Counted from the first letter of the stretch, positions 36,338-56,436 are shown. The stretch: 64,000 nucleotides of DNA from Rhodospirillales bacterium (GCA_965221855.1 CBDCSV010000005.1:355577-419576); one strand, 5' to 3'. Numbers and translations are program-made. Notes: generated by a model from the sequence alone, not told the origin.

Positions 36338-36395
36338 GGGAGCCCAAGGAAGGCTGGGAGAATCAGGCCCCGCTCGGCGGCCCGCCGGACCGTCT

Positions 36396-37297: not shown

Positions 37298-38305
37298 ATG
37301 TTTACAGCGCAACAACTGATCGAAGCCGGCAACAAAACCGTCGAATGGGCGTCCGGCCACCTCAACGAGGACGGCAGCTTCGGCGGCGTCGAGGAACGCA
37401 TTCTCGCCTATTACAAGGCGCCCATGGCCTTCGCGCTTGCGGGCCGGGCCGGGGAAGCCGCCGCCGTGGCGAACCATCTCAAAAACACCTTCTTCCAGGA
37501 CGGCGATTTTCATGCGGTGAAGGACGATCCGACCTCCGGCGGCTCGAAGAACTACCGCAACGCCTGGATCGGGCGCGGTCTCCACACGCTCGGCTTCTAT
37601 GACCTTTCGGTTCCAACGGGGGATTTCCTGGAATCCGAAATGGACGGGAAGACCGGCGGCGTTCTCACGACCTCGTCGGTCGAAGGCCGGGACCGCGAAA
37701 CGGACTGGGGAAACACCTGCTCCACGGCGATCGCGATGCTGGCGATGGGCCGGCGCGAGCCTGCCGTCCGCTGCGGCGATTTCCTCGCCCAAATGCTCGA
37801 CGATCAGGACGGCGGCGGCGAAGCGCTTTATCTCCGACGTGACAGTACCGGCGAAATCATCACGGACATGACCGGCCGACCGGCCAACCTCTATGCCGTG
37901 ATGATCGGCGAGACGGGCCAGGTGTACTGGTACCTGGGAATGGCGATGGTCGCCTTTGCCGGCCTCTACCGGTGGACCGGCGACGAGAAGTGGAAGACGG
38001 CCGGCGACCGGATCTACGACATCGTCTCCCGCTGCGACGACGAGGTCTACGCCATCATCACCAACGGGAAGGTCGCGTGGGGCGCAGGCGCCATGTTCGC
38101 CGCGACCGGCGACAGGAAGTTCGGCCAACTCAGCGACAAAATCTGGACGTGGGTGTGCGATACCCAGACGCCCGAGGGGGTCTGGCTGCGGCCCGGGGCC
38201 GAGACCGTCGCCGATCAGGCCCTTGACGTCTCGCTCGATACGTCGCTGGAGCGGGCTTCCTACATGTTCGATCTCGCCAAAACCCTGGCGGGCGGCGATT
38301 ACTAG
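37298..38305 (+). CDS. Hypothetical protein, probable (alpha/alpha)6 barrel
   Basis: ATG 37298; good high-GC codon usage; repeated QW-like motifs (NEDGSF, QDGDF, TQTPEGVW). Confidence 0.7.
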   Translation: MFTAQQLIEAGNKTVEWASGHLNEDGSFGGVEERILAYYKAPMAFALAGRAGEAAAVANHLKNTFFQDGDFHAVKDDPTSGGSKNYRNAWIGRGLHTLGFYDLSVPTGDFLESEMDGKTGGVLTTSSVEGRDRETDWGNTCSTAIAMLAMGRREPAVRCGDFLAQMLDDQDGGGEALYLRRDSTGEIITDMTGRPANLYAVMIGETGQVYWYLGMAMVAFAGLYRWTGDEKWKTAGDRIYDIVSRCDDEVYAIITNGKVAWGAGAMFAATGDRKFGQLSDKIWTWVCDTQTPEGVWLRPGAETVADQALDVSLDTSLERASYMFDLAKTLAGGDY

Positions 38306-38323
38306 GCAGGCGGATGTGGCGCG

Positions 38324-39832
38324 TCAGTTGAAATCGGCCGGATCGGGCAGATAGAAGACGGTTCCGCCGACGGTCTGGCGCTCGATCAAACTCCGGTGGG
38401 GCCGGAGCGGCCGGAATTTCAGGAACGGCAGGACGTGTTCGTCCATCATCCCTTCGACCACGTCCGCATGCTTCGGATCGTCCACGAGGTTGTCGTCTTC
38501 GAGGGGATCGGTCTCGCTATCGAACAACTGTGCCGGCGTGCGTTCGTCTTCGTAGACGACGAGCTTGTACCGCTCCGTCTTGAACATCCCCATACCGTAG
38601 GATTCGCTGATCACCACCTTGTGGTCGGGGGCCGCGCCTTCGCCGGTAACGGCGGGCAGCAGTGATTTGGCCTGCGACGTGGGCAATTCCGCACCGGCGA
38701 TGTCCCGGACGGTCGCCGAGATATCCATGTGCTGAATCAGTTCGTCGACCTGGCCGGGCTTCGTGCCCGCCGGCGGACGAATAATGAGCGGGACCTTCAC
38801 CGCCTGATCGAAGAACACCATCTTCTTGATCATCCGGTGCTCGCCCATCATCTCCCCGTGATCCGAGGTATAGATCACCCAGGTGTTTTCCAGCCTCCCC
38901 GTCCGTTCGAGAGCGTCTACGATCTTTCCGATGGACCGGTCGATGATGCTGATATTCGCGTAGTAGGCGCGGCGCAGCTTGACGATCGCCTCGTCGGTCA
39001 TGGTCTCGGAGTCGCAGTATTTCAAGAACGCCCCGAGGAAAATGGAGAGTGGGCCCGCTTCCGGAACCTCGGGCCGCTTGAGGGACCCCGGCATCGGAAT
39101 GTCGGCGCCGTCGTACCAATCCACCGCCTCCTGGGGCGCGTCCCAGGGATCATGGGGTCCCGGAAATCCGATCTGAACGAAGAACGGCTCGTCCCTGTCG
39201 TAGTTCTCCAGCCACTCGGCCGTGAAGTCGCCGAGCCAGGCGTCCTGATAAGCGTCCAGCGGCAGCGGGATGGGATCGGCCTGCCAGGCCCGGTAGGGCG
39301 GCGCATCGGGGGCGGCCTTGCGCTTGTGTTTCTGCCTGGAGCCCAGGTAGTCGCGGTAGGTGTCCAGCAGATCCCGGCTTTCGAGGAAATCCGTGTACTT
39401 GGTGTTCAGGAAGTAGGTCGCTTCCTTGCCGACCGTCTCCAGCACCTCGGCAAAGCCGTAGCCGTTGAGCTGGCCAATTCGCTCATCGGCGTGCTTCACC
39501 CGCGGCGGTATATGGCGCCAGAAATGGGTCTTTCCGATCACCGCCGTATGGTATCCGGCGTGCTGCAATGCCTGCGCGTAGGTGGGCACGGCATCGTGGA
39601 CCTCGGACATGTTCTCGAAGACGCCGTGATCCCGCACGTAGCGCTCGGTGAGAAGGGATGCCCGCGCCGGCATGCACAGCGGCCCCTGGACGTAGACATT
39701 GCCGAATTGGACGCCCTCACTTGCCAGCCGGTCGGTGCTCGGCGTTTTGGCTATGGGATCGCCCGAGGAGCCGAGCATGTCCGCCCGCTGCTGGTCGGGC
39801 ATGAGGAGAACGATACTCGGTTTGTCAGGCAC
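38324..39832 (-). CDS. Formylglycine-type sulfatase
   Basis: GTG start; PDQQRAD, LCMPARASLLT (CxPxR), GKTH, SDHGEM.GEH; no signal peptide. Confidence 0.92.
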   Translation of the reverse strand: MPDKPSIVLLMPDQQRADMLGSSGDPIAKTPSTDRLASEGVQFGNVYVQGPLCMPARASLLTERYVRDHGVFENMSEVHDAVPTYAQALQHAGYHTAVIGKTHFWRHIPPRVKHADERIGQLNGYGFAEVLETVGKEATYFLNTKYTDFLESRDLLDTYRDYLGSRQKHKRKAAPDAPPYRAWQADPIPLPLDAYQDAWLGDFTAEWLENYDRDEPFFVQIGFPGPHDPWDAPQEAVDWYDGADIPMPGSLKRPEVPEAGPLSIFLGAFLKYCDSETMTDEAIVKLRRAYYANISIIDRSIGKIVDALERTGRLENTWVIYTSDHGEMMGEHRMIKKMVFFDQAVKVPLIIRPPAGTKPGQVDELIQHMDISATVRDIAGAELPTSQAKSLLPAVTGEGAAPDHKVVISESYGMGMFKTERYKLVVYEDERTPAQLFDSETDPLEDDNLVDDPKHADVVEGMMDEHVLPFLKFRPLRPHRSLIERQTVGGTVFYLPDPADFN

Positions 39833-39993
39833 TTCGGCGGCTCCCCCTCGGATTGACGCTACCCGCTTGGTCCGGGTATTCCGGGATAGTGGGGGCGCCC
39901 GCACGAAAAGAATGTAATCGATCCGACAAACTGGTCCGCCCATCGCCGCCATGATATTGGAATTGAAGCCTAAACCGCCTGAGAGATACGGAA

Positions 39994-42327
39994 ATGAGTG
40001 AACAGCCCCTCGGCAGTCCGGACGATGCGTCCGCCGCGCCGTCGGCGGGATTTGCGTCGACGGTCATCCGGAATCCCATCGATCCCCGGCATTTGGGTTC
40101 CGCCGCCCTGTCGCCGGCGGGAGAGTTTGCCGCCGGGTCCTACCAGAGCTTCACGCTGGTCTACACGGCGGGAAAATACGGCATCGACGACTCGGGCTCG
40201 CTCCGCATCTGCTTCCGGTTTGCGTCCGATCAGACGCGGCCCCAGTTCGAAAACCCCGAGGGACCCAACTACACGGTCATCGAGGCATCGAACAACGCGG
40301 TGCTGGAGTGTCGCTATGACCCCAAGGGCAATGTCCGGCCGTGGGACCGAACGCTCTACATTAAGGTCGTGCACGGGTTCCTGAGGGAAGGGGATACGAT
40401 CTCCGTACGGTTCGGGGTGACCGATCACGGCTCTCCCGGCATGCGTCTTCAGACGTTCTGCGAGGACTCGTTCGAGTTCCACGTTCTCGTCGATCCCATT
40501 GCCACCTTCACCTACCAGCCGCTCATCGAGCAGCCGAAGATCAAGATCGTTCCCGGTGAACGGGAGCGGTTCCTGGCCGTGATCCCGACGCTCCGGAGAG
40601 TCGGGGAGACATTCGCGCTGAAGTTCAAGGGCGAGGACCGGTGGGGCAATCCGTCGGACAAGGGCGGCGGCGCGTTCACCCTGCGCGCCAATGTTCCGGT
40701 TTCGGGATTGCCGGAAACGACCGGCCTTCCCGACGGCGCGTTCAGCGCCGAAATCCCGGGCCTGTCCGTGGCGGAAGCCGGAGACCTCGTGATCGAGCTG
40801 CTGGACGAGGCCGGAAACCCGGTCACCGGGACCAACCCCCTTCGGATCGTCGAAGAGGCCGATAAGGTCCACTACTGGGCCGACCTCCACGGCCAGTCGG
40901 AGGAGACCATCGGCACCGGCGATGCCGGCGACTATTTCGCCTTTGCCCGGGATCGGGCCTTTGTCGACGCGACGGGGCACCAGGGCAACGATTTCCAGAT
41001 CACCAACCGGTTTTGGCGGCGGTTGGACGAACTCTCGGCCCGGTTCGAGGAAGACGGCAGGTTCGTCGTCCTTCCGGGCTACGAGTGGTCGGGCAACACA
41101 GGTCTCGGCGGGGACCGCAACGTCTACTTCTCCGAAGAGGGACGCCAGATCAGGCGGTCGTCCCACGCGCTGGTCGAGGACCGCTCCGACATCGCGACGG
41201 ACTGCGCCACCGCCGCGGAGCTGTTCGAGACCCTGGCCGCCAACCGGGAATGGGACGTGGTGGTCTTCGCCCACTGCGGCGGCCGCTACGCCGATGTGAA
41301 GATGGCCCATGACGGCCGCTTCGAAAAATCCATGGAGGTCCACTCCTCGTGGGGCACCTTCGAGTGGCTTCTCCAGGACGCGCTGGAGATGGGCTACCGG
41401 AGCGGGATCGTCGCCAACTCGGACGGCCACAAGGGCCGCCCCGGGGCCAGCTACCCCGGCGCCTCGCTCTTCGGCGCGATCGGCGGGCTGACCTGCCTTG
41501 TCACCGATGAACTGAGCCGGTCGTCGGTTCTCGATTGCCTGCGCAAACGTCACCACTACGCAACGACCGGCGGGCCCAACGGGCGGATGTATATGGACGT
41601 CGCGACGGCGTTCAGCCGGGACGCGACGATCTATCACGACGATCCGGCGATCGGTCCCGCCGAGGGCCGGCCGGCGCGGTCCGCGATCATGGGCGACATC
41701 GTGCACCTGCCCGAAGGCAGCGCCGAGATCAGCGTCGATATTCACGCCGCCTGCCCCATCGAGCGGGTCGACATCTTCAACGGGCTGGACCATGTGGAGA
41801 CCGTCCGGCCCTACGGTCCGGACGAGCTCGGCAATCGCGTACGCGTTCTATGGGAGGGCGCGGAATATCGCGGCCGGTTCCGTCAGGTGATCTGGGACGG
41901 CAGCGCCGTGCTCTCGGACAATCGCATCGAAGACGCCGCTCCCATCAATTTCTTCAATCCGGACAAGACCCTGGATCGTCTCGGCGACAACGGCCTCGAA
42001 TGGAGGGCCCTGACCACCGGGAACATCGGCGGATTCGACGTCTGGCTGGCCGATCCCTACGGCGGCACCCTCAAACTGGAAACCCCGCTCGTGCAGTGCG
42101 GCATTCCCGTCGAGGAAATCGGATACGAGGACGAGATATTCGACCGGAGCGGCGTGCTGCCCCGCTATTTGAAGGTATACCGCCTGCCGGCCCGGAACCC
42201 GCACCGCCGGATGACCTTCAAACGGACCATCGGCCTCAAGGACGACGGGGACAATCCGGTCTACATCAGGCTGACCCAGGAAGACGGAACGCTGGCCTGG
42301 ACGAGCCCGATTTACATCTATCGCTAG
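39994..42327 (+). CDS. DUF3604 domain protein (PHP-like metallohydrolase)
   Basis: YWADLHGQSEET, HQGND, GYEWSG, AHCGGR, EVHSSWG, NSDGHKGRPG, R.HYATTG, AWTSPIY. Confidence 0.85.
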   Translation: MSEQPLGSPDDASAAPSAGFASTVIRNPIDPRHLGSAALSPAGEFAAGSYQSFTLVYTAGKYGIDDSGSLRICFRFASDQTRPQFENPEGPNYTVIEASNNAVLECRYDPKGNVRPWDRTLYIKVVHGFLREGDTISVRFGVTDHGSPGMRLQTFCEDSFEFHVLVDPIATFTYQPLIEQPKIKIVPGERERFLAVIPTLRRVGETFALKFKGEDRWGNPSDKGGGAFTLRANVPVSGLPETTGLPDGAFSAEIPGLSVAEAGDLVIELLDEAGNPVTGTNPLRIVEEADKVHYWADLHGQSEETIGTGDAGDYFAFARDRAFVDATGHQGNDFQITNRFWRRLDELSARFEEDGRFVVLPGYEWSGNTGLGGDRNVYFSEEGRQIRRSSHALVEDRSDIATDCATAAELFETLAANREWDVVVFAHCGGRYADVKMAHDGRFEKSMEVHSSWGTFEWLLQDALEMGYRSGIVANSDGHKGRPGASYPGASLFGAIGGLTCLVTDELSRSSVLDCLRKRHHYATTGGPNGRMYMDVATAFSRDATIYHDDPAIGPAEGRPARSAIMGDIVHLPEGSAEISVDIHAACPIERVDIFNGLDHVETVRPYGPDELGNRVRVLWEGAEYRGRFRQVIWDGSAVLSDNRIEDAAPINFFNPDKTLDRLGDNGLEWRALTTGNIGGFDVWLADPYGGTLKLETPLVQCGIPVEEIGYEDEIFDRSGVLPRYLKVYRLPARNPHRRMTFKRTIGLKDDGDNPVYIRLTQEDGTLAWTSPIYIYR

Positions 42328-42337
42328 GCCCGAATTC

Positions 42338-43489
42338 ATGAGTATCACCCTTGAGGAACGCCCGATCTTTGTCCTGGGCTGCCACCGTTCCGGCACCACC
42401 ATGCTCATGCTGATGATCGGCGCGCATCCACGGATATCCGTGCCGGAAGTCGCCTGGTATTACCAGCGGTTCCGCCCCTACCTCTACAGCTATGGGAATC
42501 TGAACGACGAGGCGAACTTCAGAACCCTCACCGACGAGATGGTCAACGGCCTCATCCCGCCCTACTTCGGCATGGACGTAAATCCGGCGACAATCGTCGA
42601 CGAGATCATGGCCGATGCGAAGGAGAGGAGTTTCGCCGGCATCTTCGATGCCGTTCTCGAGCGGCACGCCCGGGAGGACGGAAACAAACCGCGTTGGGCC
42701 GAGAAGTCCCCCAACAACAGTTTCTTCGTCAAAGAGATATTGGAGGACTTCCCGAACGCCCAATTCGTCTACATCACCCGGGATGGGCGGGACAATTGCG
42801 CCGAGACCCTGCATTCCCGGCACGGTTTGTACAACATGGTGGTCACCGCCGAACGCTGGAAGCTGTTTCTGGAAGCCGTGAAACCCTGGCGTGAGAAGCT
42901 GACCGCCGATCAATGGCTGGATATCAAGTATGAAGATTTGGCCCGCCGGCCGGAGGCCATATTGGGCCAGGTCTGCGACTTTATCGGTGAGGATTATTCG
43001 CCATCCATGCTCGACTTCCATCAATCCGAGGTCGCCCAGACCAGGGCCCGGGTGGTGAAGAACCCGGGGGGCGTCTCGCCGGCGCCGCTGGCCGAACCGG
43101 TGAGCGACCGCTTCATCGGCGTCTACAAGGAGCTTCTCAGCGTCAAGGATCAGCGGATATTCGCCGCCATCGCCGGGGATATTCAGACGGAAAACGGCTA
43201 CGAACTTGAATACGAGCCGGAGGAGATGTCCGAGGAGGCTCTCGAAAACTTCCGTGAGCAGAACAGCAGAATGCGGGCGGCCCTGCTGCATGCCCGCGGC
43301 CATATGCGGGACAGCTACATCGAGTGGCTGGTGGATCAGCGGGAAGCGCGGAAGCGCCAGGGCATCTGGACCGATGCGGATGTCCCCAACGAGTTCCCGA
43401 TCGGCCATCCCGATGAGGACACCATCATGGGGCGGGGAGCGCCGAGGAAGTGGAAGACCGAGTTTGGAATTCCGAGGCGGTACTATTAG
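42338..43489 (+). CDS. Sulfotransferase family protein 1
   Basis: PAPS 5'-PSB motif GCHRSGTTML, WAEKSP, 3'-PB motif ITRDGRD, KYEDL. Confidence 0.9.
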   Translation: MSITLEERPIFVLGCHRSGTTMLMLMIGAHPRISVPEVAWYYQRFRPYLYSYGNLNDEANFRTLTDEMVNGLIPPYFGMDVNPATIVDEIMADAKERSFAGIFDAVLERHAREDGNKPRWAEKSPNNSFFVKEILEDFPNAQFVYITRDGRDNCAETLHSRHGLYNMVVTAERWKLFLEAVKPWREKLTADQWLDIKYEDLARRPEAILGQVCDFIGEDYSPSMLDFHQSEVAQTRARVVKNPGGVSPAPLAEPVSDRFIGVYKELLSVKDQRIFAAIAGDIQTENGYELEYEPEEMSEEALENFREQNSRMRAALLHARGHMRDSYIEWLVDQREARKRQGIWTDADVPNEFPIGHPDEDTIMGRGAPRKWKTEFGIPRRYY

Positions 43490-43561
43490 CGGGCCGTCCG
43501 CCGGCGGAACCGCCGAATTTCGGTTCGCGCTCGCCGGGCGGACGGGAGAGAGGAGCGGGGA

Positions 43562-44689
43562 GTGGCGATAACCCTGGACGAAGCGCCGATCTTTATCGGC
43601 GGATATGAACGCTCCGGCACCACCATGCTGATGCTGATGATCGGGTCCCACCCGCGCATCGCGGTTCCCGAGGTCACCTGGTACTACCCGCGGTTCAGGG
43701 CCTATCTGCACACCTATGGAGACATTTCGAAGGAGGAGAACTTCCGCGTCCTTCTTAGTGAAATGATGTTCGGCCTTCTGGTTCCCTTCTTCGGGATCGA
43801 GGTGGACGAAGACACCATACTGGACGAAATCCTGACCCATGTGCCGGAAAGGACGTTTCCGGGCGCCTTCGCCGGCGTGATGAACTGGTTTGTGTCAAAG
43901 AAAGGCAAGCCGAGATGGGTGGAAAAGTGCCCGCAGAACATCTTCCATGTCGCGTCGATCCTGGAGGATTTCCCCAACGCCCAGATCGTCTTCATCACCC
44001 GCGACGGCCGCGACAGCGGGGCGACCTACATGCAGTCCAGGTTCGGGCCGACCAACGTGTACGCGGCGGCGGAATTGTGGAAGAAGTTTCAGGTCGCGGC
44101 GCGTCACTGGCGCGCCCGGCTGGACGGCTCCCAATGGCTCGATGTCCGCTACGAGGATCTGGTCCGCGAGCCCGAGAATACGCTCGAACGGATATGCGGT
44201 TTTCTCGGCGAGGACTACAGCCCGGACATGCTTGGGTTTCATGAAACCGCCTATGCCCGGAACCGGGGCAGGAATCCCGACCATGCCCCCATCGCCAGGC
44301 CGGTGACCGACGAACTGATCGGCGAATACAAGCAGTACCTGAGTATTCGGGAGCAGCGAATCTTCGCCGGTGTCGCGGGTGAGGAACTGGCGGAGAACGG
44401 CTACGAAATAGATGTCGATCCCATCGAGACCAGCACCGGGGACGCGGCATTGTTGCTGGAAATGGACATGCGCACCCGTGCGGCGAATTTCGATTTGATG
44501 GGGCATCAGTACGCGTTCAGCCGGTTCAACGAGCGGCTCGTCGAACGCTGGGAGGAGCGCCGGCGGGAGGGGATCTGGAACGAGTCCGACCGGCCCCGGG
44601 ACCAGGATCCCAATGCCCGTCTTTGGATGGAAACCATTGCCGAGCAGGCCCGGTTGAAGACCAGGTTCGGCACCCATCCCAAGGAGTGA
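43562..44689 (+). CDS. Sulfotransferase family protein 2 (paralog of protein 1)
   Basis: GTG start; GYERSGTTML, WVEKCP, ITRDGRD, RYEDL. Confidence 0.9.
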   Translation: MAITLDEAPIFIGGYERSGTTMLMLMIGSHPRIAVPEVTWYYPRFRAYLHTYGDISKEENFRVLLSEMMFGLLVPFFGIEVDEDTILDEILTHVPERTFPGAFAGVMNWFVSKKGKPRWVEKCPQNIFHVASILEDFPNAQIVFITRDGRDSGATYMQSRFGPTNVYAAAELWKKFQVAARHWRARLDGSQWLDVRYEDLVREPENTLERICGFLGEDYSPDMLGFHETAYARNRGRNPDHAPIARPVTDELIGEYKQYLSIREQRIFAGVAGEELAENGYEIDVDPIETSTGDAALLLEMDMRTRAANFDLMGHQYAFSRFNERLVERWEERRREGIWNESDRPRDQDPNARLWMETIAEQARLKTRFGTHPKE

Positions 44690-44711
44690 ATACGGCGCGG
44701 TTGGAGGACCG

Positions 44712-45899
44712 ATGGACATGGAGATCGACCCCGCGACCCTTCGCGGCGATTGGAGATATCCGACAAATGTGCGGTTTGGACCCGGCCGCATAGACGAGCT
44801 GCCCGGCGCCTGCCGGTCGCTGGGCATGACCCGCCCGCTGCTGGTCACCGACCCCGGCCTGCTCGGACTGCCGATGACGGGGGAAGCGCTCGGGGCAATC
44901 CAATCGGCGGGGATCGCCGCCACCGTCTATTCGGACGTCAAGGGAAACCCGGTCGCCCGCAACGTCGTCGACGGGGTCGCCGTCTATCGCGAGAACGGCT
45001 GCAACGGCGTGATCGCATTCGGCGGCGGCAGCAGTATCGATGCCGCGAAGGCGATTGCGAATTTGGCCGATCAAACCCGGCCGATCTGGGATTTCACCAT
45101 CGTCGGCGAAGACGTCGACGTCGACGATATCGCGCCCCCGGCCCCGCTGATCGCCGTTCCCACGACCGCCGGAACCGGGTCCGAGGTCAGCCGGGGCGCG
45201 ATCATTATCGACGAGGAGGCCCAGACGAAGCGGAACGTCTCCCACCCGGACGCGATGCCCAATCTCGCCATCGTCGATCCCGAGCTGACCCTGGACTTGC
45301 CGGCCGACATCACCGCGGCGACCGGCATGGATGCGCTCTCGCACAATCTCGAGGCCTATTGCACCAGGCAGTTTCATCCGTTTTCCGAGAGCGTCGCCTT
45401 GGGGGGCATGCGGCTCATCAAGGAATGGCTTCCGGTTGCCGTGCGCGACGGCGGCAACCTCGCGGCGCGCACCTACATGATGGCGGCATCGAGTATGGGG
45501 GCGGTCGCGTTCCAGAAGGGGCTGGGCGGGATGCACGCCATGAGCCACCCGATCGGCGCCGCGCACGACCTTCACCACGGTCTCACCAACGGCGTGGTCA
45601 TGCCATATGTGCTCGCCTTCAATCGGCCGGCCATCGAGGAGCGGATGACAACGCTCGCTCGCCACCTCGGCCTGCCTGACCCGTCGTTCGACGCGGTGTT
45701 GGATTGGGTGGTGGCGTTGCGCCGGGACATCGGCATTCCGCATACTCTTTCGGAGGTCGGTATTCTGGATGAACATGCCGATCGGCTCGCGGCGATGACC
45801 GCCCGGGAACGGCCGGGCCGCAACAATCCGGTCCCTCTCGGCGAGAAGGAGTCCCGGCGGCTGTACGCCATGGCGATCAACGGGGAGCTCGAGGCCTGA
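44712..45899 (+). CDS. Iron-containing alcohol dehydrogenase
   Basis: GGGSSID, PTTAGTGSE, GMDALSH, HAMSH, HHG iron ligands. Confidence 0.93.
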   Translation: MDMEIDPATLRGDWRYPTNVRFGPGRIDELPGACRSLGMTRPLLVTDPGLLGLPMTGEALGAIQSAGIAATVYSDVKGNPVARNVVDGVAVYRENGCNGVIAFGGGSSIDAAKAIANLADQTRPIWDFTIVGEDVDVDDIAPPAPLIAVPTTAGTGSEVSRGAIIIDEEAQTKRNVSHPDAMPNLAIVDPELTLDLPADITAATGMDALSHNLEAYCTRQFHPFSESVALGGMRLIKEWLPVAVRDGGNLAARTYMMAASSMGAVAFQKGLGGMHAMSHPIGAAHDLHHGLTNGVVMPYVLAFNRPAIEERMTTLARHLGLPDPSFDAVLDWVVALRRDIGIPHTLSEVGILDEHADRLAAMTARERPGRNNPVPLGEKESRRLYAMAINGELEA

Positions 45900-45938
45900 A
45901 CGGCACGGGCTCTTGGAATTCGAAAGTGGGGAAAATCG

Positions 45939-47516
45939 ATGAACACGACCAATGAAAACCCGGGCGCTTCACGCCCAAATATCCTCTTCATTCAGGTGGA
46001 TCAGTTGGTGCCGGCCGCCTTGTCCGTCCATGGGCATCCGCTGGTCAAGACACCGCACCTGGACGAACTGGCCGCCAAAAGCGTCGTTTTCGAGAACGCT
46101 TACAGCAATTTCCCCCTGTGCTCGCCCTCGAGAGCATCCATGCTCGCCGGCCGGCTGCCGTTCAATATTGCTCAATGGGACAACGGGGCGGAATTTTTCG
46201 CCGAGATTCCGACGCTTGCCCATTATCTGAAGGCGCTCGGCTATTCGACGACGCTCTGCGGCAAGATGCATTTCATCGGCCCGGACCAATACCATGGGTA
46301 CGAGGAACGGCTGACGACGGACATTTATCCGTCCGATTTCTCTTGGACGCCCAATTGGGACCAGACCTTCAGGAAGGGCGGCGGCATACGCGTGCGGAAC
46401 GTTATCGAGTCCGGGCGCTGCGTCCGGGCCCTGCAGATGGATTTCGACGACGAGGTCGAATATCACGCTGTTCAGAAAATCTATGACTTGGTGCGGCACA
46501 CCGACGACCGGCCGTTCTTCTTCACCGTTTCCCTGTCGCACCCGCACCCGCCCTACGTGATTTCGGACAAGTACTGGGACCTCTACCGGGACGAGGACAT
46601 CGACCTGCCGCGGGTCCCGGAGATTCCGTTCGAGGAATTGGACCCGTTCAGTCAGACGCGGGCCATTGCGATGGGGCACCAGTATTACGACATCACCGAC
46701 AATCACATCCGGACGGCGCGGCATGCCTATTACGGCATGATCTCGTACGTGGACGAGAAAATCGGGTCGGTTCTGGCGGCGCTGAAGGAAACCGGGCTCG
46801 ACGAGAACACGATCATCATCTTCACCGCCGATCACGGCGAAATGCTCGGCGAGCGCGGCATGTGGCTGAAGGACACCTTCTATGAGTGGTCGGTGAGGGT
46901 GCCCATGTTCATTCATGCCGAAGGTATCGCACCTAGGCGGGTGACCGGGAATGTTTCCCTGGTCGATCTGGTTCCGACCTGCCTCGAACTCGCGGGCAAG
47001 GAGGATGAGCCGGTCACCGAACTCGACGGTGACAGCCTGGTCGGCCTGATGCACGGCTCGTCCGACGGCTGGAAGGACGAGGTGATCTCCGAATGGTCGG
47101 CGACGGGTCACCCGGCGCCGTCCCGGATGGTGCGGCGCGGCAGCTACAAATACTGGGTGAGCGAGGGGCTGCCGCCGCTTCTGTTCGATCTGGAGAACGA
47201 CCCGGACGAACTGGAGAACCTCGCGGGCCGCGACGAAGTCAAGAAGGTCGAGCGGGGCTTGCATGAGCGGCTGTATTCGGACTGGGATCCGGCCGCGCTG
47301 GGTGAACGCATTCGAACAAGCCAAAAGAGGAGGCTGTTGCTGCGCGACCTCACCGAAACCACCGAAAAATACTCCAACTGGGCGGTCCAGACGGTACGCG
47401 ACGATTCGGAGCGCTATGTGCGGGGCCGCGCCAGCAGCTTCTACGCCAAGGCGCTTCAGCGCTATCCGTTTGTCGAGCCGGTGGAGCCTGACCACGAGCC
47501 GCCTTCCGCCGACTGA
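45939..47516 (+). CDS. betC: Choline-sulfatase-like sulfatase
   Basis: PNILFIQVDQL, PLCSPSRAS, GKMHFIGPDQ.HGYEERLTTDIYP.DF.WTP, DHGEMLGERGMW. Confidence 0.8.
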   Translation: MNTTNENPGASRPNILFIQVDQLVPAALSVHGHPLVKTPHLDELAAKSVVFENAYSNFPLCSPSRASMLAGRLPFNIAQWDNGAEFFAEIPTLAHYLKALGYSTTLCGKMHFIGPDQYHGYEERLTTDIYPSDFSWTPNWDQTFRKGGGIRVRNVIESGRCVRALQMDFDDEVEYHAVQKIYDLVRHTDDRPFFFTVSLSHPHPPYVISDKYWDLYRDEDIDLPRVPEIPFEELDPFSQTRAIAMGHQYYDITDNHIRTARHAYYGMISYVDEKIGSVLAALKETGLDENTIIIFTADHGEMLGERGMWLKDTFYEWSVRVPMFIHAEGIAPRRVTGNVSLVDLVPTCLELAGKEDEPVTELDGDSLVGLMHGSSDGWKDEVISEWSATGHPAPSRMVRRGSYKYWVSEGLPPLLFDLENDPDELENLAGRDEVKKVERGLHERLYSDWDPAALGERIRTSQKRRLLLRDLTETTEKYSNWAVQTVRDDSERYVRGRASSFYAKALQRYPFVEPVEPDHEPPSAD

Positions 47517-47707
47517 CCCTTTCGCCTCGAAGCGGGAAATCTCACGAATGTCGCCTTCAATACAATTTCGTTTCCGGGCAAGGGCTAGAGTTTCATTCGT
47601 AGGCTGGTCCGCACAAAGACCCTCGATCGGAAAGAGTGCCGGGGGCCGGCCGACGGGGGCGCTGAAAGGCTAGGCGCCAGACAACAAACATTCGTGGGAG
47701 ACTTATC

Positions 47708-49309
47708 ATGTCGAAACGCTCCTTGGTTTTCTCCATGGCCCTCGCAATGGGCTTCTCGGTGCTGGTTGCGTCCGGCAGTGCGTTGGCGCAGCGAATGCCG
47801 CCAAAGGACACGCTCAGGTTCGCGGGGTTCAGCGTGAAAGTTCTCGATCCCCACTTCGGCGGCGGCGGGAGTACGGAGTTCTTTCAGTACAAGGTCTATG
47901 ACAGCCTGTTCGCGTTCGATGAAAACATGGTGGTGCGGCCCCAAATGGCCGACACGTTCACCTGGAATGCGGACAAGACGAAGCTGACCGTCACCTTGCG
48001 GCCCGGCCTCAAGTTCCACGACGGCCAGCCGGTGCGCGCCGCCGACGTGGTTGCATCGCTCAAGCGCTGGAGCAACGGACGGCGCGGTACCGCGCGGATC
48101 TTCAAACAGTTCACCAAGTCCATCGACAGGGTGGATGACAAGACCATCACCTGGACCCTGAAAGAGCCGTTCGGGATGGCCATGGAGGTCTTTACTTCGG
48201 TCCGCTATCCTCCGGCGATCATTCCGGAGCGGTTGGCCAAAACGCCGCGAAACAAGCAGATCAAGGATTTCACGGGCTCGGGTCCCTATGTTTTCCTGCC
48301 GGACGAATATGTTCCGGGCAAGCAGCTCCACTTCAAGAAGTTCGAGGACTACGTGCCCCGTTCGGAACCGCCCAGCTTCACTGCCGGAGGCAAGAAGGTC
48401 TACGTCAAGAAGCTTGAGTGGAAAATCATGAAGGACGATGCCACGCGGGTCGCGGCATTGAGGACGGGTGAGATCGACCTGATCCAGGAAGTCCCTCATG
48501 CGCTCAGGAACGACCTGCTGAACGATCCCAACGTCGTCCTGAAGCCGCTACGGACCGGCCGCCAGGGCCTTATCTTCATCAATCACCTTGCGCCGCCGTT
48601 CGACAACAAGAAGGCGCGTCAGGCATTGCTCTGGCTGATCAGCCAGGAAGAAACCCTGACGGCGATCACCGGCGATCCGGCGCTCTACCAGACCTGTCCT
48701 TCGGTCTGGACCTGCGCCAGCCCGTACGCGACGGACGTGGCCTCGGAAGCGATCATGAAGCAGGACCTGGAAAAGGCTAAACAGCTCATGAAAGAAGGCG
48801 GCTATAACGGCCAGACGATCCAGGTTTTCCAGGCCGGCAGCACCGCGACCTTCTCCAATGCGACGGTTCTGGCCGCGAATCTCCGCAAAATCGGCGTCAA
48901 GGTGGAACACCAGGCCATGAACCGCGGCGCGGCCATCGCGCGGCGGAAGAGCACCGTCGATCCCAACAAGGATCCGAAGAAGGGATGGCATATCTACGTT
49001 CAGGCCACCCAGGAAGTGACGCCGTCCATTCCGGCGTTGATGGGTCTCCTTCAAGGTGACGGCTGCAACAGGAAGGGCTTCTACGGATGGACCTGCGATG
49101 AGCGGATCGGAAAGCTCAAAGTGGCCTTCGGCCAGGCCAAGTCCGAAGACGAGCGGAAGAAAATCGCCGCCGAGCTTCAGAAGGTGGTGTACGACACCGT
49201 GCCGTACATCCAGACCGGCCTGTACTCCAACGAAGCCGCATACCGCAGCAACGTCAAGGGCGCCGTCAGGGCGCCGTCCCCCATCTACTGGAACATCCGC
49301 AAGGAATAG
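47708..49309 (+). CDS. ABC transporter substrate-binding protein, family 5 (Opp/Dpp)
   Basis: Signal peptide; LRPGLKFHDG, GSGPY, ALRTGEIDL, PPFDN.KARQA. Confidence 0.93.
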   Translation: MSKRSLVFSMALAMGFSVLVASGSALAQRMPPKDTLRFAGFSVKVLDPHFGGGGSTEFFQYKVYDSLFAFDENMVVRPQMADTFTWNADKTKLTVTLRPGLKFHDGQPVRAADVVASLKRWSNGRRGTARIFKQFTKSIDRVDDKTITWTLKEPFGMAMEVFTSVRYPPAIIPERLAKTPRNKQIKDFTGSGPYVFLPDEYVPGKQLHFKKFEDYVPRSEPPSFTAGGKKVYVKKLEWKIMKDDATRVAALRTGEIDLIQEVPHALRNDLLNDPNVVLKPLRTGRQGLIFINHLAPPFDNKKARQALLWLISQEETLTAITGDPALYQTCPSVWTCASPYATDVASEAIMKQDLEKAKQLMKEGGYNGQTIQVFQAGSTATFSNATVLAANLRKIGVKVEHQAMNRGAAIARRKSTVDPNKDPKKGWHIYVQATQEVTPSIPALMGLLQGDGCNRKGFYGWTCDERIGKLKVAFGQAKSEDERKKIAAELQKVVYDTVPYIQTGLYSNEAAYRSNVKGAVRAPSPIYWNIRKE

Positions 49310-49320
49310 TTCCGGATAGG

Positions 49321-49369
49321 CAAGGCTCGATGGCGGCCCCGGAAAAATTTTTCGGGGCTGCCGGCCTTG
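49321..49369 (+). terminator. Intercistronic stem-loop between the SBP and permease genes
   Basis: CAAGGC..GGCGGCCCCGGAAA / TTTTCGGGGCTGCC..GCCTTG long imperfect stem. Confidence 0.65.
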
Positions 49370-49384
49370 GGGTAGTATTCGGCC

Positions 49385-50326
49385 ATGTTTACCTACATCG
49401 TCCGTCGTTGCTTCGCTGCCATTCCGGTGATGATCGTGGTGGGGGTGTTCGTCTTCCTCCTCATCCACCTGACGCCGGGCGATCCCGCCGATATCCTCGC
49501 CGATGAAGATGCGACCCCGGGGGAAATCCAGCAGCTCCGGGAGTCGCTGGGGCTCGACAAGCCGCTGCACACCCAGTTCCTGATCTGGTCCGGGAACATC
49601 GCGACGGGCGACCTCGGAACCTCCCTGCTGGTCAGCAAGCCGGTCACCACCTTGATGGCCCAGCGCATCGAGCCGACCATATTCCTGGCCATCACCACGC
49701 TGACGTTCGCCGTCTTTCTCGGGGTTCCCCTCGGCGTCATGGCGGCCTGGAAGCAGGGCACGTGGTGGGACCACTCCATAATGATCTTCGCCGTCCTGGG
49801 GTTCTCCGTGCCCGGATTCTGGCTCGGCTTCATGTTCGTCTCGAAATTCGCCGTCGATTGGACCATCCTCCCGGCCCAGGGGTTCGTCAGCATCCGGGAG
49901 GGATTCGGCACCTTCCTCCACCATATGATCCTGCCCACCATCACCCTGGGTTCGTCCTACATGGCGCTGATCACCCGGATTACCCGCGCCACGGTGGTCG
50001 AGGTCCTGAAGGAGGACTACATCCGCACCGCCTACGCGAAAGGCCTGCCGCCCATGAAGGTGCTGTTCCGGCACGCCCTCCAGAATTCCTCCATCCCCAT
50101 CGTCACGGTCATCGGCATCGGGTTCGCGCTCTTGATCAACGGCGTGGTGGTCATCGAGACCGTGTTCAACATCCCGGGGATGGGCAATCTCACCATCGAG
50201 GCGGTTCTCGACCGCGACTATCCGGTCGTCCAGGGCGTCATCCTGGTTTTCTCGGGCATCTACGTGCTGGTCAATCTGGTGGTGGATTTGAGCTATTCGC
50301 TGTTCGATCCCCGGGTGAGGCACTAG
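49385..50326 (+). CDS. ABC transporter permease (OppB/DppB-like)
   Basis: PGDPA, GDLGTS, EDYIRTAYAKGL EAA loop, FNIPGMG, RDYPVVQG. Confidence 0.93.
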   Translation: MFTYIVRRCFAAIPVMIVVGVFVFLLIHLTPGDPADILADEDATPGEIQQLRESLGLDKPLHTQFLIWSGNIATGDLGTSLLVSKPVTTLMAQRIEPTIFLAITTLTFAVFLGVPLGVMAAWKQGTWWDHSIMIFAVLGFSVPGFWLGFMFVSKFAVDWTILPAQGFVSIREGFGTFLHHMILPTITLGSSYMALITRITRATVVEVLKEDYIRTAYAKGLPPMKVLFRHALQNSSIPIVTVIGIGFALLINGVVVIETVFNIPGMGNLTIEAVLDRDYPVVQGVILVFSGIYVLVNLVVDLSYSLFDPRVRH

Positions 50327-50329
50327 GCC

Positions 50330-51223
50330 ATGTCGACAGCCGCCGCCAATGACATGGAGTTCGGAGCCGCCGAGGCGCTGCCCCCGCACCGGCGCATCTT
50401 CGAGTTCGTCCGCCGCAATCCGAACCTGTCGCTGGGCCTGCTCATGGTGTCGGTGATCATTTTCGTCGCCGTCTTCGCGCCCTGGATCGCGGCCAGGGAC
50501 CCGGCCGAACTGAACGTGGTCACGGGCCGCCTCAAGCCGCCCTCGGCGGAGTACTGGTTCGGCTCCGACAGGTTCGGCCGGGACGTGTTCGCGCGCGCCA
50601 TATTCGGCGGCCGCATTTCCCTGACCGTCGGCATAACCGTCGCGCTGCTGGCCGTGTTCATCGGGCTGATGGTCGGGCTGTTGAGCGGCTACGTCCGCCG
50701 GATCGACGCCTGGCTCATGCGGATCATGGACGGACTGATGGCCATCCCCGGACTGCTGCTGGCCATCGGCTTCATCGCCCTGCTGCCGGCCGGCATCGAG
50801 ACCGTGATCATCGCGCTGACCATACCCGAGATTCCCCGGGTCGCCCGGCTGGTGCGGGGCGTCGTCGTCGTCACCCGCGAGATCACCTATGTCGAGGCGG
50901 CGGTGGCCGCGGGCGCCGGGACGGCGCGGGTGATCTTCAAGCACATCATGCCCAACACCTTCGCGCCGCTCATCGTGCAGGCGACCTTCGTCTGCGCGTC
51001 GGCCATGCTGTCGGAGGCCGCGCTGAGCTTCCTCGGCGCGGGAACGCCACCTGAGATTCCCAGTTGGGGCACCATGATGGCGGACGGCCGCTCCTATCTC
51101 AGCAGCGCGACGTGGATCATCCTGTTTCCCGGCCTGTTCCTGGCGGCGACGGTGCTCTCGGTCAATTTGATCGGCGACGGTCTCCGCGACCTCCTCGATC
51201 CGCGCTTCGCCAAGGAGGTGTGA
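50330..51223 (+). CDS. ABC transporter permease (OppC/DppC-like)
   Basis: [44 protein letters not shown]. Confidence 0.93.
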
Positions 51224-52275
51224 TGCCGGCCCCCGGAGCAGCCGACGCAATTCCCCCCGGCGGTGCGTCCCAAGGGCCCGTGCTCGAGGTCGAGGACCTG
51301 CGCACCCACTTCTTCACCCTGGACGGCGTCGTCAAGGCCGTCGACGGCGTCTCGTTCTCGGTTGAGGACGGCGAGACCCTCGGCATCGTCGGCGAATCCG
51401 GCTGCGGCAAGAGCATTACGGCCATGTCGATCCTGAGGCTCATCGCCAGCCCGCCGGGCCGCATCGTCGGCGGCGCCATCCGCTTTCAGGGGACCAACCT
51501 GCTCGAACTGGACGACGCCGGGATGCAGCGCATCCGCGGCAACCAGATCTCGATGATCTTCCAGGAGCCCATGACCTCGCTGAACCCGGTGCTGACCGTC
51601 GGCAGGCAGATCAGCGAATCCCTCATGCTGCACCGGGGCCTCTCCAAGCGCGCGGCCAGGAGCGAAGCGGTGGAAATGCTCAAGCTGGTCAACATTCCGG
51701 TGCCGGAGGCGAGGGTGGACGAATACCCCCATCAACTGTCCGGCGGCATGCGCCAGCGGGTGATGATCGCCATGGCGCTGGCCTGCGATCCCAAGGTGCT
51801 GATCGCCGACGAGCCGACCACCGCCCTCGACGTCACCATCCAGGCCCAGATACTGGACCTCATGGCGGAGATTCAGGAGAAGCTCGGCACGGCGGTGATG
51901 CTGATCACCCACGATCTGGGCGTCGTCGCCGAAAACGCCGACCGGGTGGTGGTCATGTATGCCGGCAAGAAGGTCGAGGAGGCGGACGTCGGCGAGCTGT
52001 TCGCGTCGCCGGCCCATCCTTACACCAAGGGCCTGCTGGGCTCGGTGCCGAGGCTCGATACGTGGGAGACGGCGGATTACCGGCCCGGACGCCTGAACGA
52101 GATCAAGGGCATCGTTCCGTCCCTCGACCGGTTGCCGCCCGGCTGCGCCTATGCGCCCCGCTGCCCGTTCGCCGACGAGAAGTGCCGCGAGGCCTACCCG
52201 CCGCTGGAGGAGAAGCGCCCCGGGCACTGGGCGGCCTGCTGGCACACCGACAGGCTCGGCGAGGCGGCGGCATGA
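51223..52275 (+). CDS. ABC transporter ATPase (OppD/DppD-like)
   Basis: [37 protein letters not shown]. Confidence 0.94.
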
Positions 52276-52344
52276 CCGGGGCGGCGGCCGGCGGCCCCGG
52301 CCAATCTGCGATATGGCGCCGAGTTTGGCGACGCAACGACATGA
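52272..52344 (+). pseudogene. Deletion junction: start of a second ABC ATPase joined to the probable soeA tail
   Basis: ATGA-coupled ATG at 52272 (MTGAAAGGP); a second frame reads NLRYGAEFGDATT* with its TGA overlapping the soeB ATG. Confidence 0.5.
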
Positions 52345-53099
52345 CAACGCTTCCGCCGGCAACCGGCAAGAAGTTGGGGCTGGTCATAGATCTCGATATT
52401 TGCGTCGGGTGTCACGCCTGCGCCGTAAGCTGCAAGGAATGGAATACCGGCGGATACTCGGCGCCGCTTTCCGATATGGACGCCTATGGCAACGACCCCC
52501 ACGGTCTATGGTTGAACCGGATTCACGGCTTTGAAGCCGGTGACGGAACCGGTGGCCGGACAGTCCATTTTCCACGCTCCTGTCTGCACTGTGAGGAACC
52601 GGACTGCGTAACGGTCTGCCCGACAGGGGCCTCGTACAAGCGGTCCGAAGACGGAATCGTGCTGGTCAATCCCGACACCTGCATCGGCTGTAAACTCTGT
52701 TCGTGGGCCTGCCCCTATGGCGCCCGGGAATACGATCAGAGCCACGGCGTCATGAAAAAGTGCACCCTCTGCGTGGATCGCATTTACAATGACAACCTGC
52801 CGGAATCCGATCGAGTGCCGGCCTGCGTAAAGGCCTGCCCGACCGGCGCGAGGCATTTCGGTGATTTGGGCGATCCGGACAGCGACGTTTCAAAAGTCGT
52901 CAAGGAGCGCGAAGGATACGACCTGCTGCCCGAGTTTGGGTACAGACCGGTCAACAAATATCTGCCGCCGCGAATGAGGGAAGTCGACCGTTCCCATGCA
53001 AAACCCGCCGGAGAGAAGCCGGCGCAAATCGATGCCGTCCATGCCCCTACGGCCGTCGAGAAGTTTTTCGGGTGGGCCGACCGAATGTTGTCCGATTGA
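52341..53099 (+). CDS. soeB: 4x[4Fe-4S] subunit of sulfite dehydrogenase SoeABC (DmsB-type)
   Basis: LGLVIDLDICVGCHACAVSCKEWN, CLHCEEPDCVTVCP, CIGCKLCSWACP, KCTLC...CVKACP. Confidence 0.85.
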   Translation: MTTLPPATGKKLGLVIDLDICVGCHACAVSCKEWNTGGYSAPLSDMDAYGNDPHGLWLNRIHGFEAGDGTGGRTVHFPRSCLHCEEPDCVTVCPTGASYKRSEDGIVLVNPDTCIGCKLCSWACPYGAREYDQSHGVMKKCTLCVDRIYNDNLPESDRVPACVKACPTGARHFGDLGDPDSDVSKVVKEREGYDLLPEFGYRPVNKYLPPRMREVDRSHAKPAGEKPAQIDAVHAPTAVEKFFGWADRMLSD

Positions 53100-53113
53100 G
53101 GGACGCGCCGACA

Positions 53114-54061
53114 ATGCATCCGGCATATTCCGTCATTTTTTTCACCGCCTCCTCAGGGGCCGGATACGGACTGTTGTTTTTGCTGGCGATTTTAGGGGCG
53201 CTTGGTCTGCTTCCCGCCGAGCGCTGGTTTGGACTTGCGGGCTTTGCGATTGCCCTCGGGCTGATCTCCGGCGGCCTCGTTTCCTCGACTTTTCACCTCG
53301 GTCATCCGGAGCGCTCCTGGCGCGCCTTCTCTCAATGGCGGTCCTCGTGGCTCTCCCGGGAGGGGGTGCTCGCCGTTTTCACTTACCTGCCGTCAGGCCT
53401 GCTCGCGATCGGATGGGTATATTTTGAGACGACCTCTTCGGTGTGGAACCTTATGGCTTGGCTGACGGCGCTCTCCTCTGTCGCGACGGTCTATAGCACG
53501 GCGATGATCTATGCATCCCTGAAGACCATTCCACAGTGGCACAATGGTCTCGTGCCGCCCGTATTCTTGATCCTCGCTCTGGCGACCGGCGCGGTTCTCC
53601 TCAACTTCCTAATGTTGGTTTTCGGTATTTGGCAGGCGTGGGCCGCCGTGATCGCCATTGCGGCGCTGCTTGCCGCGCTGGCATTGAAACTAAGGTATTG
53701 GGCGTTCCTCAACACAAGATCGCGCGAGTACACGGTCGAGTCGGCCACCGGCCTGAAACAGTTCGGCAAAGTCCGGCCTCTCGACGCGCCCCACACAGCA
53801 CCCAATTACCTCAACAAGGAAATGGGATACGCCATTGCGCGAAGACACTCTGAACGGCTGAGGCGGTACGTGCTCACCCTTTGCTTTGTCGCTCTGGCCC
53901 TTCTGCTGGCCCTGAATCTTGTGCTTCCGGGAATGTTCGGCCTGTTCCCGGCGGGCGCCGCCGTCATCGCCAGCGCCACCGGTGTCGTCATCGAACGCTG
54001 GCTCCTGTTTGCCGACGCCGAACATGTCGTCAATTTATACTATGGCCGGGAGGCCATCTAG
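53114..54061 (+). CDS. soeC: Membrane anchor of SoeABC (DmsC-type)
   Basis: MHPAYSVIFFT, HLGHPERSWRAFSQWRSSWLSREG, ERWLLFADAEHVV. Confidence 0.85.
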   Translation: MHPAYSVIFFTASSGAGYGLLFLLAILGALGLLPAERWFGLAGFAIALGLISGGLVSSTFHLGHPERSWRAFSQWRSSWLSREGVLAVFTYLPSGLLAIGWVYFETTSSVWNLMAWLTALSSVATVYSTAMIYASLKTIPQWHNGLVPPVFLILALATGAVLLNFLMLVFGIWQAWAAVIAIAALLAALALKLRYWAFLNTRSREYTVESATGLKQFGKVRPLDAPHTAPNYLNKEMGYAIARRHSERLRRYVLTLCFVALALLLALNLVLPGMFGLFPAGAAVIASATGVVIERWLLFADAEHVVNLYYGREAI

Positions 54062-56420: not shown

Positions 56421-56436
56421 ATACGGAGAGCATATT

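Follow-up and report, generated by a model that had tools for sequence, protein, structure and literature searches.

Within a 64,000-nt stretch of DNA from a Rhodospirillales bacterium (GCA_965221855.1, CBDCSV010000005.1:355577-419576), referred to as a whole as the window, we analysed a locus that combines two formylglycine sulfatases, two sulfotransferases (STs) and an ATP-binding cassette (ABC) importer. Gene calls were made from an open reading frame (ORF) listing, Pfam and NCBIfam profile searches and translations, and revealed that all genes named in an earlier note on this DNA are intact, closely packed and on the strands given there. A plus-strand run opens with a DUF3604-related protein of 777 aa (39994-42327; weak, partial match to PF12228), followed by the sulfotransferases ST1 (42338-43489) and ST2 (43562-44689), which match Sulfotransfer_3 with 120 and 132 bits, an iron-type (group III) alcohol dehydrogenase (Fe-ADH, 44712-45899; profiles Fe-ADH and ADH_Fe_C) and a BetC-family sulfatase (45939-47516; TIGR03417), which we assign to a 'group A'. 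The run continues with a periplasmic family-5 solute-binding protein (47708-49309; SBP_bac_5, 224 bits) carrying a Sec signal peptide MSKRSLVFSMALAMGFSVLVASGSALA, two ABC permeases (49385-50326 and 50330-51223; BPD_transp_1, with and without OppC_N) and, as the last intact gene of the block, an OppD-type ABC ATPase (51223-52275; ABC_tran and oligo_HPY). The gaps between these genes measure 10, 72, 22, 39, 191, 75, 3 and -1 nt, and the oppD start codon (ATG at 51223), with AAGGAGG upstream, overlaps the stop of the preceding permease gene. Coordinates and profile matches thus bear out the closely packed same-strand run that the earlier note described.

Equally confirmed was a second CxPxR sulfatase lying back-to-back with this run. 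This divergent type I formylglycine sulfatase is encoded on the minus strand at 38324-39952; its start is likely GTG 39832, which yields 502 aa, as in the 502-aa gene called in a related locus (L004), and places the gene at 38324-39832. The extent given for the block, 38324-52275, holds for the run and the divergent sulfatase, while the conserved block begins at about 35271 and takes in three more genes on the left. It opens with a plus-strand β-hydroxyacid dehydrogenase (35363-36337, start codon uncertain; NAD_binding_2 and NAD_binding_11) resembling 3-hydroxyisobutyrate dehydrogenase (HIBADH), tartronate-semialdehyde reductase and sulfolactaldehyde reductase, whose top NCBIfam scores of 147-163 bits each stay under the respective cutoff and which shares 88-98% amino acid identity with its counterparts in L004 and L008-L013. 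A Crp/FNR-family transcription regulator on the minus strand (36396-37121; cNMP_binding and HTH_Crp_2), presumed to regulate the locus, and an AprG-like protein of 335 aa on the plus strand (37298-38305), which belongs to no Pfam family and is a member of the sulfatase core described below, complete this part. Scans of 35-54.5 kb for promoter and terminator consensus sequences gave matches no more numerous than in shuffled sequence, an Rfam scan of 33-55 kb (E ≤ 0.1) gave no match, and a search for a shared Crp/FNR-type palindrome in the intergenic regions of the window, L083, L084, L087 and L088 found no common operator.

Related loci were collected by a genome-collection scan with an alignment of the sulfotransferases, look-ups of the encoding contigs, and tblastn and blastn surveys. 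Window positions 35271-52279 proved to be colinear, at 84-97% nucleotide identity, with nine other metagenome-derived sources (L004, L005, L008-L014 and L068), of which L008-L012 and L068 are Rhodospirillales or Rhodospirillaceae metagenome-assembled genomes (MAGs), L013 and L014 are Paracoccaceae MAGs, and L004 and L005 are metagenome contigs. Nei-Gojobori comparison with three relatives gave dN/dS ratios of 0.02-0.19 for all 13 genes, and we therefore concluded from these alignments that all 13 are under purifying selection; the sequence comparison likewise indicates that the gene arrangement is not due to chance. The earlier note would have been refuted by a combination without conservation elsewhere; we found it kept in other genomes. 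The full combination is confined to copies at least 84% identical in DNA, which points to essentially one evolutionary origin within a shallow clade. Two local deviations were noted among these copies: in the Paracoccaceae MAG L013, about 2 kb is inserted between the DUF3604 and ST1 genes (8006-10001), and the Fe-ADH protein matches of L013 (12375-13600) and L014 (2827-4050) are broken with many gaps, reflecting either gene decay or frameshift errors of long-read sequencing.

Beyond this clade, loci traced from the contexts of group A BetC genes and from a scan of metagenomes that started from the 335-aa protein revealed a catabolic core shared, at 41-66% identity, by other lineages. Its members are the Crp regulator, the DUF3604-like protein, two cytoplasmic sulfatases, the AprG-like protein, an alcohol oxidoreductase and an importer. 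In L084 (Nioella MAG), a Crp gene stands beside the series TctA-TctB-sulfatase (57%)-AprG-like (41%)-BetC-like (59%)-GMC oxidoreductase. In L087 and L088, Crp and a DUF3604-like gene (62%) stand beside [aldehyde dehydrogenase]-TctA-TctB-sulfatase (59%)-AprG-like (44%)-BetC-like (59-62%)-BetA-like GMC oxidoreductase, and L083 has a similar layout with the DUF3604-like protein at 66%. L087 additionally encodes AcnX, a formylglycine-generating enzyme (FGE) of the FGE-sulfatase family and another family-5 ABC system nearby. Crp orthologues of 33-40% identity flank the core in L083, L084, L085, L087 and L088. The BetA-like GMC oxidoreductases of these relatives reach 535 bits (cutoff 605), and the aldehyde dehydrogenase of L087 resembles succinate-semialdehyde dehydrogenase (588 bits against a cutoff of 646).

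None of the eight core loci contains a sulfotransferase, and the tally made from the other side is similar. When same-strand neighbours were counted in about 66 loci of the wider sulfotransferase family, sulfatase-like matches within 10 kb occurred in only two, both of them weak (24-29% identity). Because the two gene sets thus largely occur apart, the comparison indicates that two separately conserved modules, the catabolic core and the STs, were fused in a single lineage to give this locus. By the same comparison, one lineage has replaced the TTT-family transporter, GMC oxidoreductase, aldehyde dehydrogenase and AcnX with an Opp-type ABC importer, Fe-ADH, the β-hydroxyacid dehydrogenase and three STs.

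The three STs consist of ST1, ST2 and a further paralogue, ST3, which is present in relatives and missing from the window. The identity between ST1 and ST2 is 51% and that between ST1 and ST3 68%, while ST2 is the most divergent paralogue, with about 50% identity to everything, a mean of about 51% to the wider family and dN/dS values of 0.08-0.10; across the copies of the locus, the STs show dN/dS values of 0.08-0.19. Close homologues are few in number. The wider family, with members of about 385 residues and 49-60% identity, was found in Nitrospirota, Desulfobacterota, Burkholderiales, Chloroflexi, Spirochaetota and other MAGs; its mean pairwise identity is 75%, so that ST1, ST2 and ST3 are more divergent among themselves (50-68%). 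In the plasmid collection, ST1 had no close relative (best 27-30% identity). Same-strand neighbours in the wider family belong to the DASS/Na-sulfate-symporter family (30 loci), TauE (18 loci), NitT/TauT-type ABC systems (about 17 loci) and ATP-sulfurylase (2 loci), and in the searchable literature nothing was found on such an ST-DASS-TauE locus or on the 385-aa family. Many of these loci (L006, L007, L015-L081) also carry sigma-54, GntR or two-component regulators.

Alignment of 68 members, including ST1, ST2 and ST3, revealed an invariant 5'-phosphosulfate loop (R17-S18-G19-T20-T21), which aligns with RSGST of the CurM and olefin synthase (OLS) sulfotransferases, and an invariant 3'-phosphate motif (R148-D149-G150-R151-D152 with S160). 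We take this RDGR...S motif to be the counterpart of the 3'-phosphate-binding motif of TPST2. In addition, E37 is invariant in a set of 11 sequences and kept in 90% or more of the 68; its counterpart in the CurM sulfotransferase alignment is the Glu of 'SPPEL'. An AlphaFold2 (AF2) model of ST1 (pLDDT 91.7) gave TPST1/2 and the CurM and OLS sulfotransferases as best Foldseek matches, with TMt 0.6-0.7 for TPST and CurM; among the top 50 matches listed, only sulfotransferase-fold enzymes were recognised, and most titles name 3'-phosphoadenosine 5'-phosphate (PAP) or its phosphosulfate (PAPS). Judged by motifs and model, ST1, ST2 and ST3 look like genuine PAPS-type enzymes of a distinct family. 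The notion that they are sulfotransferase-fold proteins repurposed for another chemistry, raised in the earlier note, is therefore not needed, given the PAPS motifs invariant in 68 members and a model that matches only PAP(S)-binding sulfotransferases.

The nearest characterized enzymes, TPST1/2 and the activating sulfotransferases CurM and OLS, are the best sequence and structure matches of ST1 and share the RSGTT-type loop, the RDGR motif and, for CurM, the aligned Glu. They differ in that identity is only 16-21% and that ST1 has, in addition, a conserved stretch of about 150 residues in its C-terminal part. Unlike the setting of CurM and OLS, no polyketide synthase or thioesterase domain was found in the block, and unlike that of TPST, there is no peptide-substrate gene, the STs being placed amid small-anion transport or sulfatase genes. 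Bacterial loci for biosynthetic sulfonation, such as the cholesterol sulfotransferase locus of Bacteroides, have an ST next to genes for sulfate uptake or activation. The wider 385-aa family resembles such loci in adjoining DASS, TauE and occasionally ATP-sulfurylase genes, whereas the clade of the window is without sulfate-activation genes and has its STs amid sulfatases and an importer.

Both sulfatases span positions 1-300 of the 301 of PF00884, with 171 bits for the divergent enzyme (motif CMPAR) and 175 bits for the BetC-like enzyme (motif CSPSR), and are 31% identical to each other. Neither has a signal peptide, so that desulfation would be cytoplasmic. Orthologues of the divergent enzyme, at 57-59% identity, are present in L084, L087, L088 and L091. 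The BetC-like enzyme scores 588.6 bits over the full length of TIGR03417 (choline-sulfatase; cutoff 433.45) and 388 bits, also at full length, against the choline sulfatase of Sinorhizobium meliloti (6fny). Measured against the residue roles described for choline sulfatase (PMC9063841), alignment with the S. meliloti enzyme shows the catalytic residues C54, N75, K102/H104, H201 and K309 to be kept, as are Tyr123 and Trp129. The choline-binding hairpin W142-W143-Y144-H145-N146 is reduced to G-(two-residue deletion)-I-R, Glu386 is replaced by Thr, and the C-terminal gate Asn498-Leu499-Asp500 reads S-S-F. PF12411 (Choline_sulf_C) gave no match in this enzyme or its relatives of 58-63% identity, while more distant homologues do match. 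Homologue searches and alignment delimit a group A subclade (56-63% identity) that lacks Choline_sulf_C and conserves R145, R151 and R153 in the remodelled hairpin.

These substitutions make a choline-sulfatase function of the BetC-like enzyme improbable, and choline-O-sulfate was rejected as its substrate in view of the lost binding hairpin, E386 and C-terminal gate. The designation 'BetC-like' is thus sound as a family label, since the TIGR03417 cutoff is passed, and misleading as a hint to the substrate. Neither BetI nor a choline transporter was found at the locus. Group A sulfatases also occur in other sulfatase contexts: on a 2.7-Mb contig (L085, 362-16394), a group A gene lies in an island that comprises five genes for sulfatases, two sets of TctABC and regulators of the LysR and Crp types, and that has no AprG-like gene.

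The DUF3604-like protein matches PF12228 weakly (27.7 bits, gathering threshold 20.4) and over only about 100 of the 591 profile positions, as do its counterparts in six relatives, and its match to CehA/McbA is weak as well (24.6 bits, cutoff 80). Eight residues invariant in 45 orthologues (D297, H299, H329, E364, H427, H450, D477 and H479) are candidate metal ligands; residue 301, normally the second His of an H-x-H motif, is Gln. We consider the protein a PHP-like putative metal-dependent hydrolase flanked by β-sandwich domains. No sequence match was found in the PDB, and in an AF2 model built on a shallow alignment the catalytic core was poorly predicted (pLDDT about 45-55 over residues 360-500); Foldseek with this model gave only Ig-like β-sandwich matches (TM about 0.14), which makes the fold search uninformative. 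The searchable literature yielded nothing on DUF3604 function.

In three ST-free lineages (L083, L087 and L088), orthologues of the DUF3604-like protein with 62-66% identity adjoin the AprG-like gene and the same pair of sulfatases, which indicates, on grounds of gene neighbourhood, that the protein belongs with the sulfatase core and not with the STs. In L008 and L010 (9700-10000), the gene is deleted to its first 27 nt and followed by about 240 nt of unrelated sequence, with the rest of the cluster, including all STs, intact, which amounts to natural deletion variants. The role of DUF3604 as a hydrolase in sulfate-ester catabolism, suggested in the earlier note, hence gains support from three independent ST-free lineages, while the link is not universal, orthologues being found elsewhere in four genomes.

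The AprG-like protein, without a match in Pfam or NCBIfam and without a close relative in the plasmid collection, aligns over residues 5-333 with residues 8-332 of AprG (structures 9c95/9lfi, E 1.2e-20). AprG, from apramycin octose assembly, is described as an aldolase (PMC11033246). The match covers the full length of the core protein, but similarity is low and the context differs: no aminoglycoside cluster is present, and orthologues of 41-55% identity lie in a catabolic setting between the two sulfatases in L083, L084, L086-L088, L090 and L091.

As to the importer, the best PDB match of the solute-binding protein is 8vdx, and the permeases are of the Opp/Nik/Gsi type by NCBIfam scores under the cutoffs. 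The Fe-ADH likewise stays under its NCBIfam cutoffs, with 325 bits for 4-hydroxybutyrate dehydrogenase and 267 bits for GbsB choline dehydrogenase (cutoff 550); in the PDB it comes closest to methanol and 1,3-propanediol dehydrogenases. The Opp/Dpp-type set is incomplete in the window, consisting of the binding protein, two permeases and OppD, whereas relatives carry both ATPases, OppD and OppF. At a plus-strand breakpoint (52272-52341), oppF breaks off after 25-30 nt and gives way to unrelated DNA, a loss that probably cripples the importer of this copy.

At this right edge, blastn homology to all relatives comes to an end at 52279-52302. In all eight relatives that extend far enough, oppF is followed by ST3, which in L005 overlaps the oppF stop; because of this 8/8 occurrence, comparison indicates that the ancestral cluster had three sulfotransferases and that the window copy has lost oppF and ST3. 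The 'twin' sulfotransferases of the earlier description are consequently what is left of a set of three. The loss stems from either a genuine rearrangement or a join made during assembly. A long ORF in L068 that might have encoded an OppF-ST3 fusion protein was rejected as only an open alternative frame. About 40 nt past the break begins a dmsB-like gene (4Fe-4S dicluster), which with a dmsC-like membrane-anchor gene forms an orphan pair without dmsA (52341-54061); this junction was produced either by deletion or recombination joining two operons or by a chimeric assembly. Directly after the dmsC-like gene lies a 60% relic of an IS630-type repeat (54058-54357).

On the left boundary, an insertion relative to L004 and L012 (33867-35270) carries an IS630-type (DDE_3) transposase, both relatives matching window positions 33704-33866 by blastn and resuming at 35271. 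Outside the block, blastn found no homology to any relative. The surrounding window is rich in insertion sequence (IS) elements, with three 100% identical IS630-type (DDE_3) copies (2847-3900, 6494-7550 and 33866-34900), two identical IS5-type (DDE_Tnp_1) copies (1184-2386 and 18333-19535) and a Mutator-family transposase (10129-11385). Two glutathione S-transferases, a histidinol-dehydrogenase-family gene, a short-chain dehydrogenase/reductase (SDR) and an IclR regulator, which lie among the upstream IS copies (at 7546-8289, 15859-17379 and 13655-15776), have no obvious tie to the sulfur locus. Downstream, a two-partner secretion pair comprises a ShlB/FhaC-type TpsB (56107-58176) and a plus-strand TpsA-like frame (58163-64000) of at least 1946 aa, which bears a signal peptide at its N-terminus, has a GC content of about 70% and internal repeats of about 248 nt, and runs off the window; a 1904-aa minus-strand ORF at 58-64 kb was dismissed as the shadow of this gene.

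Taken together, we propose a two-module model, to which we assign a probability of roughly 0.5, in which a small imported compound other than choline sulfate and bearing several O-sulfate groups is catabolised and the recruited STs act on the same compound class. Sequence comparison shows the identities of the genes, their conservation and modular origin, the intact ST motifs, the lost choline determinants and the truncation, whereas we infer the substrate class, the direction of flux and the role of the STs. The binding protein and ABC permeases would import the compound, and the divergent and group A sulfatases would cut sulfate at two different positions in the cytoplasm. The Fe-ADH would then oxidise the freed primary alcohol, after the logic of betC-betA-betB and in place of the GMC oxidoreductase and aldehyde dehydrogenase used elsewhere, while the AprG-like protein and the DUF3604/PHP-like hydrolase may work on the carbon skeleton or on a third hydrolysable group, and the Crp-family protein would regulate the gene set. 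The two, ancestrally three, STs would have been recruited from the family that adjoins transporters for sulfate- or sulfonate-type anions and would act on hydroxyls other than those addressed by the sulfatases, either to edit the sulfation pattern or to activate a hydroxyl as a leaving group; a futile cycle would be avoided because the two enzyme types have different targets. That the STs most likely act on the same compound class as the sulfatases is suggested by their co-orientation and tight spacing, the coupling of ST3 to oppF, their retention in nine sources and purifying selection. A hint that the substrate is anionic and hydroxy-acid-like comes from the hairpin arginines, the TTT transporters of relatives, the likeness of the Fe-ADH to 4-hydroxybutyrate dehydrogenase and that of the partner aldehyde dehydrogenase of L087 to succinate-semialdehyde dehydrogenase.

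Several observations weigh against this proposal. The substrate class rests on sub-threshold family matches and residue substitutions, and because the fusion comes from one shallow clade (at least 84% DNA identity), the co-occurrence of STs and sulfatases carries little independent functional weight. The DUF3604-like gene was lost from L008 and L010 while the rest of the cluster was kept, and its orthologues in four other genomes (69-74% identity) are not near sulfatases. Furthermore, the window genes scanned include neither cysDNC for PAPS synthesis nor FGE or anSME for sulfatase maturation, and the expense of PAPS would be unusual, in energetic terms, for a catabolic route.

A bolder form of the model, which we regard as doubtful, gives the STs an integral catalytic part in the breakdown or salvage of a sulfated metabolite. 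Sulfation would either turn a hydroxyl into a leaving group and so replace the AcnX dehydratase and GMC/aldehyde dehydrogenase steps of the ST-free relatives, or sulfuryl groups would be shuttled through PAP, with sulfate esters being rearranged or harvested as PAPS. More probable than this, if still unlikely, is that the STs are functionally unrelated passengers that keep the housekeeping acceptor of their wider family and landed in an IS-rich variable region. The single shallow origin of the fusion, the differing flanks and abundant IS copies, the conserved context of the wider family itself and a core that works elsewhere without STs all fit such an arrival. Passengers would hardly be expected, however, to persist as three paralogues at two sites in all nine sources under dN/dS of 0.08-0.19, with ST3 abutting or overlapping the oppF stop, and the divergence of the paralogues (50-68% against a family mean of 75%) suggests a new specificity after recruitment.

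About as doubtful as integral STs is a sulfation/desulfation cycle serving a compatible solute or the storage of sulfur, in which STs would turn an imported alcohol into a sulfate ester analogous to choline-O-sulfate, sulfatases would mobilise this ester later and the ADH would drain the alcohol pool. Fungi and plants run such a pair of choline sulfotransferase and choline sulfatase, PAPS-type STs and a BetC-family plus another sulfatase share one run here, the Fe-ADH resembles GbsB (267 bits), and the sulfate-uptake-type transporters and occasional ATP-sulfurylase beside the wider ST family would suit biosynthesis. If both directions were co-expressed on the same position, on the other hand, PAPS would be wasted in a futile cycle; the BetC-like enzyme has lost its choline-binding determinants, the core is widespread without STs, and no bacterial choline sulfotransferase gene was found in the searchable literature. 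Considerably less probable is sulfuryl salvage, in which STs running in reverse or via bound PAP would capture PAPS or move sulfate between molecules, so that sulfur is gained from imported esters with no need for ATP sulfurylase or APS kinase. In its favour, the reaction of PAPS-type enzymes can be reversed with aryl sulfates, ST3 is coupled to the importer, cysDNC is absent nearby, and the sulfatases with which the STs co-occur would take the low-energy alkyl esters. The transfer potential of alkyl sulfate esters is too low for such a reaction, however, and the locus gives no indication of an aryl or enol sulfate substrate; the BetC family is described as specific for alkyl sulfates (PMC5870055). 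The least probable option, and a very improbable one, was that the DUF3604/PHP-like protein is a phosphatase clearing PAP as the ST by-product. A PHP-family PAP phosphatase is known, the conserved His, Asp and Glu residues are PHP-like, and the gene ends 10 nt before ST1. Genomic contexts contradict a service to the STs, and we rejected it: orthologues accompany the core in the ST-free L083, L087 and L088, the gene is deleted in L008 and L010 where all STs are kept, and four further orthologues stand in unrelated contexts.

The two-module model can be set against known systems. The betICBA genes for choline-O-sulfate utilisation (S. meliloti BetC, BetA and BetB) likewise place a BetC-family formylglycine sulfatase beside an alcohol-oxidising enzyme, and the partners in the ST-free relatives are a BetA-like GMC oxidoreductase and an aldehyde dehydrogenase. 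In contrast, the choline clamp and gate are missing here, a second sulfatase, the AprG-like and DUF3604-like proteins and the STs are added, Crp takes the place of BetI, and an Opp-type or TTT importer that of a choline transporter. An opposed pair of ST and sulfatase is also found in the sulfation and desulfation of choline sulfate in fungi and plants. In animal steroid cycles (PMC4591525), a PAPS-dependent ST and a formylglycine sulfatase oppose each other on one class of small molecules. Unlike the present genes, which are predicted to be co-expressed, the enzymes of these eukaryotic cycles do not share an operon and are kept apart by tissue or condition. The searchable literature contained no described pathway with this gene set, in agreement with the earlier note.

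These comparisons led us to view the locus as a probable sulfate-ester catabolic locus with an unexplained addition of sulfotransferases, a view limited by the narrow single-origin distribution and the truncated copy in the window. For annotation, the TIGR03417 'choline-sulfatase' call covers at least one subclade without the choline site, and many database names are thus probably wrong. The conserved catabolic core gives the DUF3604-like and AprG-like proteins a testable setting, and the 385-residue sulfotransferase family, with a mean identity of 75% across several phyla, is flagged as uncharacterised. Should the STs indeed take part in processing the imported ester, bacteria would use PAPS-dependent sulfation in degrading or salvaging organosulfates, which has not been described before and has a bearing on organic sulfur cycling. 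If the STs are integral to the route, they would put PAPS-type enzymes to a new kind of use in bacterial degradation and provide first functions for DUF3604-like, AprG-like and group A BetC-family proteins.

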